The position numbers and the translations under genes are program-made. From a virus (lineage: Duplodnaviria > Heunggongvirae > Uroviricota > Caudoviricetes), in the IMG/VR virus record IMGVR_UViG_2698536339_000002: a DNA stretch of 25,965 nt; one strand, written 5' to 3'. The notes beneath the pieces are model-generated. The model did no database searches and was not told the DNA's origin. It saw nothing but the letters and a program-made list of their open reading frames with translations. This document shows positions 1 to 6,581 of the stretch, in pieces. Every line of letters starts with the position of its first letter. The first letter of the stretch is position 1.

Positions 1-432
1 GTGATTCTGCTGGACTTTATGCGCAGGGAGTTAAACCTGTCTAACTCTTCAGTGCTTGGTGCCTGTCAGAAACTCCAGGAGGCTGTTGGCTTACCGAATC
101 TGGCACCGCGCTATGCCATTGATGCTCCTGCTGACGCGCCTGATGGCTCAAGTCGCCCTACGCTGTCGCTGAGTGCACTGCTGAAACAGTATGGTATCCG
201 CCTTACGGCTAATCAGGCATATCACCAGATGGCGAAGCTGGGGATCGTTGAACAACGCGAACGATACAGCCGTACCTCGATTAACAACATCAAAAAATTC
301 TGGTCGCTGACAGCGAAAGGCTGCATGTTCGGCAAGAACATCACCAGTCCCGCAAATCCGCGCGAGACGCAGCCGCACTTTTTCGAATCCCGATTCCCTG
401 AGCTGTTAAAGCTGCTCGATACCGTTCATTGA
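1..432 (+). CDS. Hypothetical phage protein, 3' portion of an ORF that runs off the window's left edge
   Basis: Open frame from position 1 (no true start in window) to stop at 430-432, immediately followed and near-overlapped by the next gene in the same orientation. No catalytic motifs recognised; function not assigned. Confidence 0.45.
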   Translation: MILLDFMRRELNLSNSSVLGACQKLQEAVGLPNLAPRYAIDAPADAPDGSSRPTLSLSALLKQYGIRLTANQAYHQMAKLGIVEQRERYSRTSINNIKKFWSLTAKGCMFGKNITSPANPRETQPHFFESRFPELLKLLDTVH

Positions 433-433
433 G

Positions 434-1429
434 GTGACCGTGAGAGCACTACTGACCCCTGAAATTGCCCCGCGTATGGGGATCGTATTGTTCAGACCAG
501 GTTCAGAGCTGATGCCCCTGTTTATGCAGGGGCGTGTCCTGCTGGAGCCTGAGCCGGAACGTTATTCATCTTTCGCCAGTGGTGCCGTTCCGGCGGCATC
601 ACAACCGCTGGCGGATGATCCTGCCGTACGGGCCGTGTTCCGCAATGAGGCAGTGATCCGTCGTGCTGGTGGCGTGGAATGTCTTGAAAGCTGGTTACTT
701 CGTGAAAAAGGCTGCCAGTGGCCTCATTCCGACTGGCACAGCGAGAACATGACAACAATGCGACACGCGCCGGGCGCAATCCGTCTGTGCTGGCACTGCG
801 ATAACCAGCTGCGCGATCAGTTCACGGAACGGCTGGAATCAATGGCAACGGATAACTGTGCCCGCTGGGTGTTGTCTGTTGTGCGTCGGGATCTCGGTTT
901 TGATGACAGTCACGTTGTGACAATGCCGGAACTGTGCTGGTGGCTGATTCGTAATGACCTGGCGGATGCCTTACCGGAAAGTGCAGCCCGTAAGGCACTG
1001 AGATTACCGAAGCCTGTTGTGCCGTCTGTCACCCGGGAAAGTGACCTTGTGCCTTCGGTTCCTGCCACCAGCATCATCCAGGATAAGGCGAAAAAGGTGC
1101 TGGCGCTGAAAGTGGATCCGGAGTCGCCGGAGTCTTTTATGTTACGCCCAAAACGTCGCCGCTGGGTTAATGAAAAGTACACGCGCTGGGTTAAGACACA
1201 GCCGTGTGCATGTTGTGGAAAGCCTGCTGATGATCCCCACCACCTGATAGGCCACGGTCAGGGGGGAATGGGTACAAAAGCGCATGACCTCTTTGTGTTG
1301 CCTTTGTGCAGAAAGCATCACGACGAGCTGCATGCGGATACCGTGGCATTTGAAGAGAAGTATGGCTCCCAGCTGGAGCTGATATTTCGTTTTATCGATC
1401 GTGCGCTGGCAATTGGCGTGCTGGCCTGA
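434..1429 (+). CDS. DUF968/YdfU-like prophage protein with C-terminal Cys/His (HNH-like) metal-binding motif
   Basis: 331-aa ORF directly upstream of Q, as for ydfU-type genes in E. coli lambdoid prophages. C-terminus carries C-x-C-C-G ... HH ... C-x-x-HH spacing typical of HNH/zinc-binding folds. Family assignment is from recall, not a search. Confidence 0.6.
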   Translation: MTVRALLTPEIAPRMGIVLFRPGSELMPLFMQGRVLLEPEPERYSSFASGAVPAASQPLADDPAVRAVFRNEAVIRRAGGVECLESWLLREKGCQWPHSDWHSENMTTMRHAPGAIRLCWHCDNQLRDQFTERLESMATDNCARWVLSVVRRDLGFDDSHVVTMPELCWWLIRNDLADALPESAARKALRLPKPVVPSVTRESDLVPSVPATSIIQDKAKKVLALKVDPESPESFMLRPKRRRWVNEKYTRWVKTQPCACCGKPADDPHHLIGHGQGGMGTKAHDLFVLPLCRKHHDELHADTVAFEEKYGSQLELIFRFIDRALAIGVLA

Positions 1430-1431
1430 TT

Positions 1432-1788
1432 TTGTGGAGAAAGTTGATGCGTGATATGTATGAAGTATTGGACCGCTGGGGTGCATGGGCTGCAGCAGAT
1501 AACAGTGGTGTGGACTGGCAGCCTGTTGCTGCAGGGTTTAAAGGTTTACTACCTCATGGAAAGAAAACACGCCAACAATGCGATGATGATGAAGGAATCA
1601 TGATTGACAGCTGTGTTGCGCGATTGCGGAAATATAAGCCCGAAGAGTATGAGTTGGTTATTGCTCATTTTGTTATCGGCATCTCACTAAGAACTATTGC
1701 AAAGAAGCAGAAGTGTTCTGATGGGACAATAAGAAAAGAGTTGCAAACAGCTCTTGGTTTTCTGGATGGTGTGCTTTCAATGTTGTAA
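1432..1788 (+). CDS. Q: Late-gene antitermination protein Q (small QuuD/phage-82-type)
   Basis: 118-aa product with the pattern LDRWGAWAA ... GFKGLLP ... QCDDDEG ... CSDGTIRKELQTA, matching my recollection of small Q antiterminators (E. coli DLP12 QuuD). Lies upstream of the lysis cassette as expected. Confidence 0.8.
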   Translation: MWRKLMRDMYEVLDRWGAWAAADNSGVDWQPVAAGFKGLLPHGKKTRQQCDDDEGIMIDSCVARLRKYKPEEYELVIAHFVIGISLRTIAKKQKCSDGTIRKELQTALGFLDGVLSML

Positions 1789-1793
1789 TATTA

Positions 1794-1816
1794 GGGGGAA
1801 TTACCCCCCTTTTTTT
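1794..1816 (+). terminator. Rho-independent terminator hairpin immediately after Q (possibly bidirectional)
   Basis: GGGGG (1794-1798) / AATTA loop / CCCCCC (1804-1809) followed by a 7-T run (1810-1816). The stop codon of the convergent minus-strand gene (1801-1803) lies inside the hairpin. Confidence 0.55.
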
Positions 1817-2349
1817 CTCTGTTGTTTTAATAAAATTTTAATATTTTGTCTGATTATGATGAGGCAATGTAATAAAAGAAATACCGTTAGTATTGCAAGC
1901 CATACGCAAAATAAGCATGCATATAAATTAGTTGAAAGTCCAATAGTGAATTGTGCAATTGCTGTTGTGATAGAACATAATATTGATGTATTAATAAATG
2001 AGGATAAATTGTCTAAAGGTTTATAAAGTACACTATCATTGATTTTGTCAATAGGTATACCAGTGGCAATGCTATAAATTTCCTTATATTCCTGAGTTGC
2101 AAAAACCTTATCGCGTAAATTTATTATGACAAAGGTATGCAGGCTCAATAAAAATGAACCCACGGAAATAAAACCGGAGAAGAGATAGCCTCGTAAGTTT
2201 TTATGATAAAAATCAAAAAAGTTAACACTTACTTTAGGTGTGTTTCTGTACAATAGGTAAAGTGCAAGCAATGCCAGGATCGAGAATGCAAGCAGTGTAA
2301 TGTACTGATACCTCAATCTTTTATTTATTAGCCATTCATATAAAGGCAT
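1801..2349 (-). CDS. Hypothetical integral membrane protein (about 4 predicted TM helices), second gene of AT-rich cassette
   Basis: 182-aa ORF with four long hydrophobic stretches (approx. residues 16-34, 55-79, 117-138, 141-167) and a basic C-terminus (KQQRKKGG). Start overlaps the upstream gene's end by 14 nt. Very AT-rich codon usage, unlike the flanking phage genes. Confidence 0.6.
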   Translation of the reverse strand: MPLYEWLINKRLRYQYITLLAFSILALLALYLLYRNTPKVSVNFFDFYHKNLRGYLFSGFISVGSFLLSLHTFVIINLRDKVFATQEYKEIYSIATGIPIDKINDSVLYKPLDNLSSFINTSILCSITTAIAQFTIGLSTNLYACLFCVWLAILTVFLLLHCLIIIRQNIKILLKQQRKKGG

Positions 2350-3262
2350 TTTTATTCGTCCCGTTCAGCATTTCTTCTTTTATCATATCAAAAACAGGGT
2401 TTGTTGTATAATTATCGTTTGTCAATCCATTGACTTTATCGGCAATTATATCGAAATCGTATGTTTCAAAAAAAACAGGGCAGTTCATAAAATCAATGGT
2501 TTTTTCTATTCCTGCATGGTTTACTGCAATAACCTGTGCTTTAGCAACTCCACTCATAGAATTATAAATATTTGAAAGATTCTGAGATAGTTGTTGCACT
2601 TTTGTTCTGTCGCTAGAATTAAAATTCATATCTATTGTGGTGGTGTTAACAAATTGTTCAAGCGCAGTCATTGGCCCACCTTTAAAATCTATATAATTAA
2701 ATTTAAAGCTTGTGCTTTTAATCTCTTTGAATTGACATAAAACACTCTGAATGTTGTTTTTATTTGTCATAAGGCTGAAAGTCAGTCTTTCTTTGTATTT
2801 TTTATTTATTGCAGTTACTTCTTTTTGTTTTGGTTTATCTCCAAGTTTTTTTATTTCTTCTTTATTTTGATTTCTGATAAATTCATTACTTATTGTTTCT
2901 AAATGAGAAAAGAGAGTGTTCAGGCTGCATGAACCGTGGTGATACATATAGAGACCAGAAAGATTAGATTTTTTAATTAAGAAAAAGTTGAAATTAGCAA
3001 GTTTGTCACTTCCTTGAAGATCTTCAATTTTAAGCTGGAATTTACCATCAACAAATTGCGACTTACAGTTCTTTTTTTGGTTTCTGAATGTGACAACTAA
3101 TCCATAATAGAAATCATTCACATCCGAAATGAGAATTTTACGAGTATAGTCTGTGCGACTGTGTTCTCTGTTTGATGCGTTGATAAAAGCATTCATTACG
3201 TCAACGGTATTAATATTTTTGTTATTGTTATTTATTGTAAATCCTATGCTTCTAACTTTCAT
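2336..3262 (-). CDS. Hypothetical soluble protein (308 aa), first gene of AT-rich cassette; no recognisable motifs
   Basis: Long uninterrupted minus-strand ORF in a strongly AT-rich segment, rich in Asn/Lys/Ile. No Walker A, HxH, DPPY or other signature seen by eye. Overlaps the downstream membrane gene by 14 nt, suggesting an operon. Confidence 0.6.
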   Translation of the reverse strand: MKVRSIGFTINNNNKNINTVDVMNAFINASNREHSRTDYTRKILISDVNDFYYGLVVTFRNQKKNCKSQFVDGKFQLKIEDLQGSDKLANFNFFLIKKSNLSGLYMYHHGSCSLNTLFSHLETISNEFIRNQNKEEIKKLGDKPKQKEVTAINKKYKERLTFSLMTNKNNIQSVLCQFKEIKSTSFKFNYIDFKGGPMTALEQFVNTTTIDMNFNSSDRTKVQQLSQNLSNIYNSMSGVAKAQVIAVNHAGIEKTIDFMNCPVFFETYDFDIIADKVNGLTNDNYTTNPVFDMIKEEMLNGTNKNAFI

Positions 3263-3384
3263 GTGTATTCCAGGACCGACTAAAGATAGCGAGAATGGGG
3301 ACGCATAGTTTATAAAAATCCTAACGCGTACGCAAAAAGTATTATATCGTGTTAAGAGTGGTTACTTCGCCACACAACTTAAAC

Positions 3385-3405
3385 CCGCCGCTGAGCGGTT
3401 TTTTT
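3385..3405 (+). terminator. Candidate rho-independent terminator (possible tR'-like element)
   Basis: Short GC stem CCGC/GCGG with TGA loop (3388-3398) followed by T7 (3399-3405). The stem is short, so strength is uncertain. Confidence 0.35.
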
Positions 3406-3503
3406 GTACCTGTAAACCAGGTGCAGTACAGTAAACACGCTGGTGGTCGTGAATACTGGCTTTTTATCTTGCTGGCTTTTTAGACAAGAGTTATTGGTAT
3501 GTC

Positions 3504-3731
3504 ATGTTAACCAGAAGGGAAAAAGACATGCTAAAACAGCAAGATATGACAGAAACCGCCGCCGCAGTCCTTCATTTCTTACCTGCTGACAAGTGGGTAA
3601 CGCCACGCATGATGACGAGAACTACCGGAGTAAGCGAAGCCCGGTGCCAGTTAATACTGACTCAGTTAGTTCTGGCGGGTCTGGCGAAGGATAACGGCGG
3701 GTACGGGAATAAATTCAGACGCTGCCAGTAA
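3504..3731 (+). CDS. Small hypothetical protein, possible DNA-binding regulator
   Basis: 75-aa ORF. An internal ATG at 3528 has a better Shine-Dalgarno (AAGGGAAAAAGAC-ATG), so the true product may be 67 aa. Size and charge pattern resemble small winged-helix regulators, but this is not verified. Confidence 0.4.
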   Translation: MLTRREKDMLKQQDMTETAAAVLHFLPADKWVTPRMMTRTTGVSEARCQLILTQLVLAGLAKDNGGYGNKFRRCQ

Positions 3732-3881
3732 TGGCGGTTTCCTGCTGTGAAAATGGGCGGCTGGTGGGTGTTGGTAGCACCTGCCAGCCATTCGCTCATG
3801 CCTACTGGTCACAAGCGAACCACGGCCCACTGCTTTAGCGCAAAAGCAGAGTGAGCCTACCAGAGTTACGCTTACTGATCC

Positions 3882-4934
3882 ATGAAAAATACTGTAAAAA
3901 TAAACAGTGTTGATTTAATCAACGCTGATTGCCTGCATTTTATTCAGTCCCTGCCTGATGATTCCATTGACCTGATTGTTACCGATCCGCCGTACTTCAA
4001 GGTGAAACCCAACGGCTGGGACAATCAGTGGAAAGGGGACGAAGATTACCTTAAGTGGCTGGACCACTGTCTGGCCCAGTTCTGGCGGGTGTTAAAACCT
4101 GCCGGAAGCCTTTACCTGTTCTGTGGGCATCGCCTGGCATCTGATATTGAGATCATGATGCGTGAACGTTTCAACGTGCTTAACCATATCATCTGGGCGA
4201 AGCCGTCCGGACGTTGGAATGGGTGTAATAAAGAAAGTCTGCGCGCATATTTTCCTGCCACAGAGCGCGTTCTGTTTGCTGAACATTACCAGGGACCATA
4301 TCGCGGCAAAAGTGACGGCTATGCGGCAAAAGAAAGGGAACTCAAACAGCACATAATGGCACCGCTGATATCGTATTTCAGGGATGCTCGTGCCGAACTG
4401 GGTATAACGGCAAAACAAATTGCCGAAGCCACAGGTAAGAAAAATATGGTTTCCCACTGGTTTGGTGCCAGTCAGTGGCAGTTGCCGAATGAGGCTGACT
4501 ATCGGAAGTTACAGGCACTGTTTTCCCGTATAGCGGCAGAGAAGTTTCAGGAACAACAACTGGAACAACCACACCACCAGCTGGTGGCATCTTATGATTC
4601 ACTGAATCGTAAATATTCTGAATTGCTGGATGAGTTTAAATCTCTCCGGCGCTATTTCTCCGTATCAGTCTCCGTGCCTTATACCGATGTCTGGATGCAT
4701 AAACCCGTTCAGTTCTACCCGGGGAAACATCCGTGTGAGAAACCGGCGGATATGCTCAGGCAAATAATCAATGCCAGTAGTCGACCAGGTGATCTGGTTG
4801 CTGATTTTTTTATGGGATCCGGTTCCACAATAAAAGCAGCAATGGCGCTGGGGCGTCGGGCCTTAGGTGTTGAGCTTGAGTCAGAGCGGTTTAATCAGAC
4901 AGTGAAAGAGATAAACGAGCTGGTGGGGAAATAA
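3882..4934 (+). CDS. Orphan DNA methyltransferase, beta-class amino-MTase (N6-adenine or N4-cytosine)
   Basis: Catalytic motif IV DPPY (LIVTDPPYF) lies near the N-terminus and the AdoMet-binding motif I (DFFMGSGST) near the C-terminus. This IV-then-I order defines beta-class amino-methyltransferases. No adjacent restriction endonuclease candidate. Confidence 0.85.
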
Positions 4935-4940
4935 TCTGGT

Positions 4941-4965
4941 GGCCACGTCAGGTGGCCTTTTTATT
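4941..4965 (+). terminator. Rho-independent terminator between methyltransferase and holin
   Basis: GGCCAC (4941-4946) / GTCAG loop / GTGGCC (4952-4957) followed by TTTTTATTT. Confidence 0.5.
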
Positions 4966-5001
4966 TCCATTACACAGCACCCGCATCTGCGAGGTGGGGT
5001 T

Positions 5002-5217
5002 ATGAAATCCATGGATAAGTTAACAACGGGTGTCGCCTATGGCACCTCAGCAGGTAGTGCCGGTTACTGGTTTTTACAGCTGCTCGATAAAGTCACGCCC
5101 TCACAGTGGGCAGCAATAGGTGTGCTGGGTAGCCTGGTATTTGGCCTGCTGACGTACCTGACAAACCTTTATTTCAAGATTAAAGAAGATAAGCGCAAGG
5201 CTGCGAGAGGTGAATAA
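5002..5217 (+). CDS. S: Class II pinholin (phage 21 S-like) with dual-start motif
   Basis: 71-aa product [26 protein letters not shown]...[17 protein letters not shown]...KRKAARGE with two TM segments. Met1-Lys2-Ser3-Met4 is a holin/antiholin dual-start arrangement. SD GAGGTGGGG lies upstream of ATG 5002. The 4939 start in the ORF track is probably an upstream over-extension. Confidence 0.8.
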
Positions 5218-5783
5218 TGCCTCCATCATTACGAAAAGCCGTTGCTGCTGCTATTGGTGGCGGAGCAATTGCTATAGCATCAGTGTTAATCACTGGCCCA
5301 AGTGGTGACGATGGCCTGGAAGGTGTCAGCTACATACCATACAAAGATATCGTTGGCGTATGGACTGTATGTCACGGACACACCGGAAAAGACATCATGC
5401 TCGGTAAAACGTATACCGAAGCAGAATGCAAAGCCCTCCTGAATAAAGACCTTGCCACGGTTGCCAGACAAATTAACCCGTACATCAAAGTCGATATACC
5501 GGAAACAACGCGCGGCGCTCTTTACTCGTTCGTCTACAACGTGGGTGCTGGCAATTTCAGAACATCGACGCTTCTTCGCAAAATAAACCAGGGCGATATC
5601 AAAGGCGCATGTGACCAGCTACGTCGCTGGATATACGCTGGCGGTAAGCAATGGAAAGGCCTGATGACTCGTCGTGAGATTGAGCGTGAAGTTTGCCTGT
5701 GGGCAGAAAAACCTCAGGTTCTTGGTGATGGGCTCGGGCCGCTTAACCCAGGCATTCCGGTATCAGTTCCGGGGGTATTCTGA
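5217..5783 (+). CDS. R: SAR endolysin (signal-anchor-release lysozyme, phage 21 R-like)
   Basis: N-terminal Gly/Ala-rich weakly hydrophobic SAR segment ([20 protein letters not shown]) followed by a lysozyme domain with Glu35, Asp44 and Thr50 at the expected catalytic spacing. Directly follows the pinholin. Confidence 0.85.
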
Positions 5784-6319
5784 TGAAACCCAGAAAAATT
5801 ACGATTGTTGCGGTTCTGCTGGTGGCTGTCGTAATCATTATTGCAGTGCTTAGCGTATTACTGGTTCGTAGCCGCTCAGCTCTTGAAACAGAACAGAGTG
5901 AGAATCGGGTATTACGTAATGATAACGCGCTGCAGGCGACGGTGATAACTACACAGGCTTTCAACTTCAATCGGTTTAACCAGATAGCAGAGAACGCCAA
6001 CCGCCTTAACTCGCTGATCGATGCCGGTACTGAGAAAACTGTCATCGAATACCGGGAGATTCTCCGACGTGAAAAGACCTGTGATCTGCCTGTTCCTGCT
6101 GATGTCGCTGGTGGGCTGCTCAAATACGCGTACCGTTTACGTGCCAGCGCAATGCACCCCGATACCGGGAACACTAACGCAACCGATGATAGTACCGCTG
6201 CCGCCAGCTCAATGACGTATTGCCAGGCCGTCCTCTGGATTGAACCTTTGCTGGCTGTTATTGAGAAGGGCAACAATAACCTGGCGGGTATACGAGAGAT
6301 TGAGAAGTTACGAAAATGA
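5783..6319 (+). CDS. Rz: i-spanin (Rz-like), type II inner-membrane protein
   Basis: N-terminal TM helix (ITIVAVLLVAVVIIIAVLSVLLV) then a charged, coiled-coil-like periplasmic domain. Start overlaps the endolysin stop (TGATG). The o-spanin gene is embedded within it. Confidence 0.75.
   Translation: MKPRKITIVAVLLVAVVIIIAVLSVLLVRSRSALETEQSENRVLRNDNALQATVITTQAFNFNRFNQIAENANRLNSLIDAGTEKTVIEYREILRREKTCDLPVPADVAGGLLKYAYRLRASAMHPDTGNTNATDDSTAAASSMTYCQAVLWIEPLLAVIEKGNNNLAGIREIEKLRK
6069..6215 (+). CDS. Rz1: o-spanin (Rz1-like) outer-membrane lipoprotein, embedded in +1 frame within Rz
   Basis: GTG start at 6069 preceded by GGGAGA. Signal peptide with lipobox LVGC, then a Pro-rich mature region (PAQCTPIPGTLTQPMIVPLPP). 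Fully nested in Rz in the +1 frame. Confidence 0.65.
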   Translation: MKRPVICLFLLMSLVGCSNTRTVYVPAQCTPIPGTLTQPMIVPLPPAQ

Positions 6320-6581
6320 ATAATGTCCGTTGACATTGTTAGGGTGATTCTCATTTAACAACCTCAACTGCTACATTACAGTGCTTCATCATGCAATTAG
6401 CTTTTTCACCAATGGCTTAGATCCAGTGAAAGTTACTGACGTTATCTAATGACAAGATGAACGTAGCTTTTGTGTAGTTTTTCAGCGAATAGGATTATCT
6501 GAATTTAGCATTTTTGGCTTGTATAAACTGTGGGTAAGTAGCTATAGTCACGTCATAGATAGTATTTTTGCATCTTTTTCA

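Follow-up and report, generated by a model that had tools for sequence, protein, structure and literature searches.

The window analysed here, a 25,965-nt stretch of a virus of the class Caudoviricetes (IMG/VR record IMGVR_UViG_2698536339_000002), comprises the nin-Q-lysis-morphogenesis portion of a lambda-like prophage. Textbook and structural accounts treat the late antiterminator gene Q and its late promoter PR', with the qut site, as one contiguous cassette. The region beyond Q in this window is, in our judgement, probably a split Q module: a 1.5-kb cargo slot parts Q from its own PR', candidate Q-binding element (QBE), pause element and terminator tR' (about 3311-3405), and the slot holds leftward-oriented cargo, a Rex-like allele of a hotspot. 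The separation of Q from the lysis genes itself has an ordinary explanation, and the generalisation behind it is the interesting part.

Q and the putative late promoter region

Q ends with a TAA codon at 1786-1788. The open reading frame (ORF) can be read from an in-frame TTG at 1432, and the likelier start, as in the RefSeq annotation, is the ATG at 1447, giving a protein of 113 aa. The protein covers 113 of the 118 profile positions of Pfam PF06530 (Phage_antitermQ; E 2.5e-45), matches phrog_79, 'anti-termination protein Q-like' (E 7.7e-49), and hits the phage 21 Q structures 6P18/6JNX in a phmmer search of the PDB (E 2.6e-4); a weak match to ECF sigma region-4 is consistent with the reported Q21 fold. 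Protein alignment gives 45% identity to QuuD of DLP12, a cryptic prophage of Escherichia coli K-12, and 29% to Q21. Judged by its sequence, Q is a member of the phage 21/QuuD family, and because it matches PF06530 and the Q21 structures and aligns with both QuuD and Q21, phage 21 is the relevant paradigm. A first, sequence-only reading had set the region against lambda and phage 82. Its contrast with a contiguous arrangement holds, but Q groups with phage 21 Q and QuuD, and the insert is one allele of a recurrent slot rather than a one-off. For phage 82, a pause at +25 and a -10-like element at +9 to +14 followed by GCC are described (PMC5001585).

For phage 21 (Yin et al. 2019, bioRxiv 10.1101/651190; record OL657228), published experiments place the Q stop at 1932 and the -35 and -10 of PR' at 1939-1944 and 1962-1967, with a QBE (1947-1962) made of two 8-bp repeats in the spacer. 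Transcription starts at 1974, the sigma-dependent pause element, TAAGCTG, occupies 1975-1981, and a terminator extends to 2023. The two Q proteins belong to the same family, although that of phage 21 is larger (162 against 113 aa), and both phages show the same order of elements within about 90 bp: a weak or strong -35, a conserved protein-binding block (in the window a candidate) in the spacer, a -10, a TAAG.. sequence near the start and a terminator 30-50 nt further on. The main difference is that the phage 21 -35 starts 7 bp after the Q stop, whereas the window has 1.5 kb of antisense cargo in between.

Comparison with related loci supports the assignment of 3311-3405 as the Q-linked late promoter region, with a putative PR' downstream of the insert. 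In an insert-free relative, E. coli Combat2C1 (NZ_CP019243; locus L005), the homologue of 3304-3424 (84% identity) starts right at the stop codon of Q. This insert-free Q, found in thirteen E. coli genomes, is 79% identical to the window Q in DNA and 87% in protein, and adjacency of Q and PR' was found only there. A Q of the same type (84-100% protein identity) is encoded at 80 IMG/VR loci, and the motif ACGCGTACGCAAAA, with at most two mismatches allowed, lies 0.6-3.0 kb downstream of Q in 73 of them; of the seven loci that lack it, six are on contigs too short for it or broken off within 2.4 kb of Q. Cargo homologues with 47-73% protein identity, from Yersinia ruckeri, Klebsiella aerogenes and Salmonella, sit in the same layout, with Q convergent and the element divergent. 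In phages Ayreon and vB_EcoM-720R4, which carry a non-homologous Q of 250 aa and share the DUF968 and methylase genes, homology to the window ends at 1441 and resumes at 3382. Because these phages match only outside it, 1442-3381 is a Q-specific module and any Q-specific site should lie inside it; Ayreon has a terminator annotated where tR' (3384-3405) would be.

DLP12 has the same architecture, quuD, antisense nmpC, a PR'-like element and then essD rrrD rzpD, with a single porin gene as cargo where the window has a two-gene cassette. Its element, between nmpC and essD, is 83% identical to 3327-3404; the upstream half differs (TTTACGTACGTAAAAAA) and has a better -35 than the window. The sequence-only reading had suggested aligning the region 3263-3410 with the late promoters of QuuD-type and phage 82/21 Q proteins. 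It had also left two options for late transcription. The first, a start downstream of the insert, is supported, because the element abuts Q in the insert-free relative, recurs in 73 of the 80 loci and resembles the phage 21 layout, and the phages with the 250-aa Q point the same way. The second, late transcription running antisense across the cassette, finds no support as far as PR' transcripts are concerned, PR' and the cassette being divergent; only antiterminated early (PR-derived) read-through past the hairpin that follows Q could cross it.

A rival arrangement would place PR' and qut directly after Q or in its end, with the hairpin at 1794-1816 as tR' and Q-modified polymerase silencing the cassette on its way to the lysis genes. 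With PR' in the 3' part of Q, tR' would be expected right after the gene, which is where the hairpin stands, and the cargo would be shut off automatically. We find this hardly credible, however, as the consensus scan gave no promoter-like plus-strand site in 1300-2063, and the last codons of Q and the hairpin vary with the cargo among phages with the same Q, whereas a Q and its qut have to remain together. What does remain with Q is the element past the cargo, which abuts Q where cargo is absent.

The anatomy of the element was derived from 34 distinct versions, whose consensus over window positions 3310-3373 is.ta.aAAAa.acTAACGCGTACGCAAAAa.tat.gTA...TGtTAAGAGTgGT.acTtcG.CAC. An A-tract is followed by a weak -35 (CTAACG), the conserved block ACGCGTACGCAAAA in the spacer, -10-like hexamers and an intrinsic terminator. 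Conservation is highest, at least 90% across the 34 sequences, at 3321-3338 (CTAACGCGTACGCAAAAA), a block that includes the weak rightward -35. At this position QuuD-type Qs (43-45% aa identity) show TTTAC(G/A)(T/A)(A/T)CGTAAAAAA, and phage 21 has ATTGAGCAAATGAGCA. The conserved spacer block of 14-18 bp (ACGCGT-ACGCAA) has a palindromic core and a period of 6 bp, and its sequence varies from one Q subtype to another. Its position in the spacer, its conservation and its difference between Q subtypes are what a Q-binding element should look like, and 3321-3338 is accordingly our candidate QBE. The palindrome within it, GCGTACGC at 3326-3333, has a DLP12 counterpart, TTTACGTACGTAAA (locus L008 4706-4719). 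Since a Q21-type QBE is a direct repeat, a perfect palindrome would not be expected here; it might mark the site of a dimeric regulator or let the block serve promoters in both directions.

Three tandem -10-like hexamers follow. TATTAT (3340-3345) keeps the form TAnnnT in 25 of the 34 versions, and TATCGT (3345-3350), the sole good -10 in QuuD-type elements, keeps it in all 34. In the third, TG-n-TAAGAG (3350-3358), the TG (3350-51) is present in 33 versions and TAAGAG is exact in 29, resembling the phage 21 pause element TAAGCT. The late start site would fall within 3352-3364. With 3340-3345 as the -10, the start would be near 3352 and TAAGAG would occupy +2 to +7, precisely the place of TAAGCT in phage 21; with 3345-3350 as the -10, the start would be near 3357, overlapped by TAAGAG. 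TAAGAG itself may be a pause element or an extended -10. The terminator, GCCGCTGAGCGGT followed by T7, lies about 30-50 nt downstream of the putative start, has longer stems in relatives and forms the left end of the sequence common to phages with a different Q type. A predicted RNA hairpin, GUGGU..GCCAC at 3358-3373, was dropped, since relatives do not keep it.

Several observations weigh against this assignment. The candidate QBE differs in sequence from that of phage 21: it is partly palindromic rather than two 8-bp direct repeats, its co-variation with Q subtype could simply reflect linkage, and a leftward -35 (below) could explain the block by itself. The three tandem hexamers leave the start and the pause element ambiguous, with 8 or 13 bp between -10 and pause-like element, unlike phage 21; with TATCGT as the -10, TAAGAG would sit at -4 to +2, a tighter spacing than lambda, 21 or 82 show. 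At 4-5 bp, the tR' hairpin is also short in the window. Finally, the consensus promoter scan finds neither PR' nor the cargo promoter, because both -35 hexamers match at only three of six positions, and both promoter calls thus rest on comparative evidence. The first plus-strand promoter/terminator pair that the sequence-only reading had placed at about 3300-3405 corresponds to the conserved sequence at 3311-3358 and the hairpin with T7 at 3387-3405.

The two ends of the cargo slot

The junction between Q and the cargo proved to be as first described, with a hairpin and T7 at 1794-1816 directly after the Q stop, and AT-rich antisense genes beyond it, in the form of two overlapping ORFs (1801-2349 and 2336-3262; GC 0.25-0.35). 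The hairpin begins 5 nt after the Q stop, where G5 (1794-1798) pairs with C5-6 (1804-1809) ahead of T7 (1810-1816). It ranked top among the terminator-like sites found in a scan of 1300-5300 (17, against 3.7 expected). Folding energies are -11.4 kcal/mol on the plus strand and -12.7 kcal/mol on the minus strand, with z-scores against shuffled sequences of -1.75 and -2.83, respectively. Taken alone, the structure is no more than moderately unusual. The last four codons of cargo gene B and its stop (KKGG-stop, 1801-1815) fall within the hairpin and T-run, and the structure would therefore serve both convergent genes. The minus-strand tail of the hairpin (1793-1816) is UAAUAUUAC, a weaker U-tract than the T7 of the plus strand, and leftward transcription may therefore run on into Q to some extent.

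Of 30 unrelated cargo alleles, 22 carry a GC hairpin no more than 75 nt from the Q stop; among control segments taken from inside inserts, 19 of 120 (16%) have one. These hairpins are non-homologous, each allele having its own sequence after the Q stop, and they often have an A-tract before and a T-tract after. What recurs between Q and cargo is thus a putative convergent terminator, probably bidirectional.

At the other end of the slot, the conserved block reads TTTTGCGTACGCGTTAG on the minus strand and would provide a leftward cargo promoter, with a -35 of TTGCGT at 3335-3330, a 17-bp spacer, a -10 of TAAACT at 3312-3307 and a start near 3300, ahead of the cargo ATG at 3262. Across the 30 unrelated alleles, TAnnnT lies exactly 17 bp from TTGCGT in 19 and at 18 bp in four more, against a background over other offsets of 0.85 per 30 (maximum 4). 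The hexamers at this position include TATAAT, TACAAT (four times), TAGAAT, TATATT and TAAAAT, among others, and cargo start codons follow 40-60 nt past the hexamer. The leftward -10 sits at the edge of otherwise unrelated cargo sequence, with the -35 inside the conserved candidate Q-binding motif; the promoter would be a composite, its -35 supplied by the Q-module element and its -10 by the cargo edge. It would stand back-to-back with PR', with starts about 52-65 bp apart and adjacent -35 regions, so that late and cargo transcription would diverge without collision. Polymerases at the two promoters should be mutually exclusive, and the cargo -35 would be masked by whatever occupies the spacer of PR', including Q.

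The strength of the leftward signal raises the alternative that 3321-3358 is only the control region of the cassette, promoter plus operator, with the true late promoter elsewhere, for example at 3410-3500. Of the promoters considered, the leftward one is best supported by comparative positional evidence, the palindromes of the window and DLP12 resemble the operator of a dimeric regulator, and a second hairpin with T5 is present at 3439-3465. This alternative nevertheless appears decidedly unlikely to us: in the insert-free relative the block abuts Q without any cargo to control, and a leftward promoter would have no use for the conserved rightward TAnnnT (34/34) and TG-n-TAAGAG (29-33/34). 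Moreover, from 3382 on the sequence is common to phages with unrelated Qs, and hence holds no Q-specific site, and the layout matches that of phage 21.

If 3311-3405 is the late promoter region, as we prefer, the element could be shared and bidirectional in function as well. Q, made late in the lytic cycle and bound to the element, would then, with a paused polymerase at PR', occlude the cargo promoter, switching off the abortive-infection system of the prophage as the late genes switch on, and the slot would be linkage-locked, with a built-in self-immunity common to some 30 defence cargos. We offer this extension tentatively, as a rather doubtful one.

A cargo hotspot and its RexA-fold allele

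The 73 inserts fall into about 30 clusters without mutual similarity, 0.6-3.0 kb in length and with a GC content of 0.29-0.43, and in every cluster the main ORFs run opposite to the Q strand. The cassette of the window, or a diverged version of it, occurs at 12 of the 80 loci. The slot extends from about 1765, in the last Q codons, to about 3306-3312, the edges of variability lying inside Q on the left and 10-15 nt upstream of the conserved block on the right. The last 8-15 residues of Q are hydrophobic and vary in sequence and length with the cargo allele, giving proteins of 113-120 aa; since the C-termini differ between alleles, cargo swapping seems to break within the Q coding sequence without harming Q. 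Because a Q has to be passed on with its cognate loading site, genes in the slot would be co-inherited with Q.

The DLP12 gene nmpC and an antisense gene of PhiR40_1 occupy the same slot. A second viral scan, with QuuD, returned 80 of 80 loci with an identical QuuD and an nmpC-sized insert, adding no diversity. The isolated phages vB_EcoS-569R4 and mEp460_4F5 have the arrangement, and among 5,426 complete E. coli genomes it is present in 218, O104:H4 and O26 prophages included.

Among 49 cargo proteins of other alleles, matches to defence families comprise KwaA/KwaB of Kiwa (E down to 2e-150), PD-Lambda-5_A, NsnA/PD-T4-2_A, PDC-S42, PDC-M53A, PDC-S33 and a ThsB-type TIR protein with caspase, and GmrSD-N, HEPN, RelA/SpoT and NA37 domains were also found. 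The slot has a fixed site, alternative unrelated alleles, deviant GC and, apparently, its own promoter and terminator, the features by which morons and defence hotspots are recognised. Alleles lacking annotation (L024, L046/L080, L050, L020, L053/L058/L088, L022 and L043) hold, for example, a zinc-ribbon/NA37-like pair or a protein of 427-434 aa, and several pair a protein of 270-340 aa with a membrane protein of 160-195 aa; these alleles are candidate new defence systems.

Defence hotspots in P2/P4 (PMC9122126) and antisense AT-rich accessory loci in Salmonella prophages (PMC7067206) are already established, as are RexAB and nmpC between quuD and essD. The slot shares with these hotspots and loci a fixed position, many alternative low-GC cassettes with their own promoter and terminator, known defence systems and an orientation against the lytic genes. 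Unlike them, it comes between an antiterminator gene and the cis-acting loading site belonging to it, and the cargos of the slot appear to share a half-promoter embedded in that site. In the literature searched, we found no description of a Q-to-PR' hotspot that splits an antiterminator from its loading site, of a cargo-shared half-promoter embedded in such a site, or of this RexA-fold/membrane pair.

The cargo of the window comprises a soluble protein of 308 aa (protein A) and a polytopic membrane protein of 182 aa (protein B). Protein A has the RexA/RdgC fold, a split globular domain plus a dimerisation domain, and its best fold match is the exclusion protein RexA; the RexA literature lists the same fold relatives (PMC11077077). 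By hydropathy, protein B has three to four hydrophobic helices, the second of which contains the invariant motif NLRGYLFSGFISVGSxLLSLHTFVI, and its AF2 model is all-helical (pLDDT 76). The pair stays together across the Enterobacterales, from E. coli to Yersinia, always beside a PF06530 Q. Homologues of protein B form 103 clusters at 90% identity, all from Enterobacterales or close relatives, compared with 35 for the RexA-fold family, and some are 190-204 aa long; protein B may pair with other, unrecognised sensor proteins.

The resemblance to lambda RexA/RexB (RexA structure 8TWQ; PMC11077077) extends to gene order. In both, a protein of about 300 aa with the RexA/RdgC/CHL4-IML3 fold is encoded just upstream of a small polytopic membrane protein, the membrane gene of the window overlapping the soluble one, and both pairs are prophage-borne, AT-rich and, to judge by position, placed for expression in the lysogen from their own promoter. 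They differ in location, since lambda rexAB lies in the immunity region and is co-transcribed with cI, whereas the window pair lies between Q and PR', and in sequence, since A and B belong to neither the RexA nor the RexB family and B has no detectable relation to RexB. The slot here probably carries an anti-phage system, and by analogy A and B are most likely a Rex-like two-component exclusion or abortive-infection system.

The database results bear on the other side of this assignment. Protein A has no sequence similarity to RexA (9% identity), and a fold search of protein B against BFVD viral models gave nothing below E 0.5 and did not recover lambda RexB. Neither protein matched Pfam, PADLOC or NCBIfam (E<=0.01); protein A matches only an unnamed PHROG, and protein B matched none. 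Profile-profile comparison with 45 proteins of other alleles, KwaA/KwaB included, revealed no relationship, hhalign probabilities against the Kiwa proteins of sister alleles being at most 0.5%, with no PADLOC match to Kiwa. About a third of the cargo alleles match known or candidate defence families, and about two thirds of the clusters have no match.

These results leave room for the cassette to be an ordinary lysogenic-conversion gene pair or selfish moron with no role in defence, serving for example a membrane or DNA-metabolism function at a tolerated insertion site. The second close relative in fold, RdgC, acts in recombination and not in defence, and the DLP12 slot holds a porin gene. We regard this as unlikely, given that RexA is the best fold match and a small polytopic membrane gene comes next, as in lambda, that sister alleles include several validated systems, and that A and B are conserved as a pair from E. 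coli to Yersinia.

Window layout, proposed mechanism and significance

The features of the region are collected in Table 1. GC content is 0.25-0.35 over 1700-3300 and 0.50-0.59 in the flanks (0.31 for the insert against about 0.52). After Rz, terminase, portal and tail genes follow, all on the plus strand. Scans of the whole window with Rfam at gathering thresholds and for tRNAs gave no matches.

Table 1. Features of the window from the nin region to the lysis genes.
Feature	Position	Strand	Remark
KilA-type gene, end	1-432		
DUF968/HNH gene	434-1429		
Q late antiterminator	1447-1788	+	PF06530; phage 21/QuuD family
Convergent terminator (putative), GC hairpin plus T7	1793/1794-1816		Q/cargo junction
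Cargo gene B, 182 aa	1801-2349	-	Overlaps gene A
Cargo gene A, 308 aa	2336-3262	-	RexA/RdgC fold
Non-coding stretch, 240 bp			Between cargo gene A and 75-aa ORF
Putative leftward cargo promoter	3299-3335	-	Positional conservation across alleles
Most conserved block of Q module	3321-3338	+	Candidate Q-binding element
Putative PR' core, three tandem -10-like hexamers	3340-3358	+	
tR'-like intrinsic terminator	3384-3405	+	Hairpin plus T7 at 3387-3405
75-aa ORF (orf75)	3504-3731	+	Late operon start
DNA methyltransferase	3882-4934	+	
Terminator-like hairpin	4941-4962	+	
S21-type holin	about 5002-5217	+	
Endolysin	5217-5783	+	
Rz	5783-6319	+	

Two further terminator-like hairpins with T-runs lie on the plus strand inside the late operon. 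One (3439-3465; T5) is 35 nt past tR', and the other (4941-4962) lies past the methylase stop (4934) and ahead of the likely start of the holin gene (about 5002), at a place where Ayreon has an annotated terminator. The methylase block looks like another bracketed insert that would require Q antitermination for read-through. The orphan N6/N4 DNA methyltransferase it encodes (PF01555; PADLOC MTase_II, E 3e-152), between PR' and the lysis genes, is common to phages of differing Q types and may be a late-expressed anti-restriction function. A 203-aa ORF at 5743-6354 on the minus strand, antisense to Rz and overlapping it fully, is most likely spurious, and an embedded Rz1 frame, as in DLP12, is expected at Rz.

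Relatives also carry genes just past the late promoter. In Combat2C1 (locus L005 3525-4811), a scabin-related ADP-ribosyltransferase and a subtilase-family AB5 binding subunit are encoded first after PR'-tR' in the sense orientation; these toxin genes are placed like stx and would be under Q control. In Ayreon (locus L001 2492-3209), a tR'-type hairpin is duplicated (2503-2532; 3180 onward) and the copies flank two sense-strand ORFs, which suggests a second cargo site just past tR' in the phages with the 250-aa Q.

Taken together, the arrangement suggests the following course of events. In the lysogen, PR' would fire and stop at tR', while the cargo promoter would express A and B and the hairpin after Q would end the cargo message before Q. 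On induction, early rightward transcription would make Q and be largely stopped by the hairpin and T7, although, if antiterminated, it may continue across the cargo; the hairpin at 1794-1816 would in this way insulate the early Q message and the leftward cargo message from each other. Q would load downstream of the cargo, and the polymerase would pass tR' and the hairpins at 3439-3465 and 4941-4962 into the lysis and structural genes, a course that takes in orf75 and the methylase as well as the genes for lysis, head and tail. Transcripts from PR' would never cross the cargo. The RexA-fold protein A, of a DNA-binding type, would act as a cytoplasmic sensor that activates the membrane effector B, leading to abortive infection or exclusion of superinfecting phages.

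For the family as a whole, the finding describes a widespread subfamily of phage 21-type Q modules that are routinely split by swappable antisense cargo. In annotation, the late promoters of such prophages are to be sought past the cargo and not past Q. For discovery, Q on one side and the motif ACGCGTACGCAAAA..TAAGAGTGG on the other form a simple anchor for harvesting candidate defence systems, and the slot candidates with no match in the defence-family library include the RexA-fold/membrane pair of the window. The shared divergent promoter region suggests how a prophage could silence its defence cargo through the same switch that turns on its late genes.

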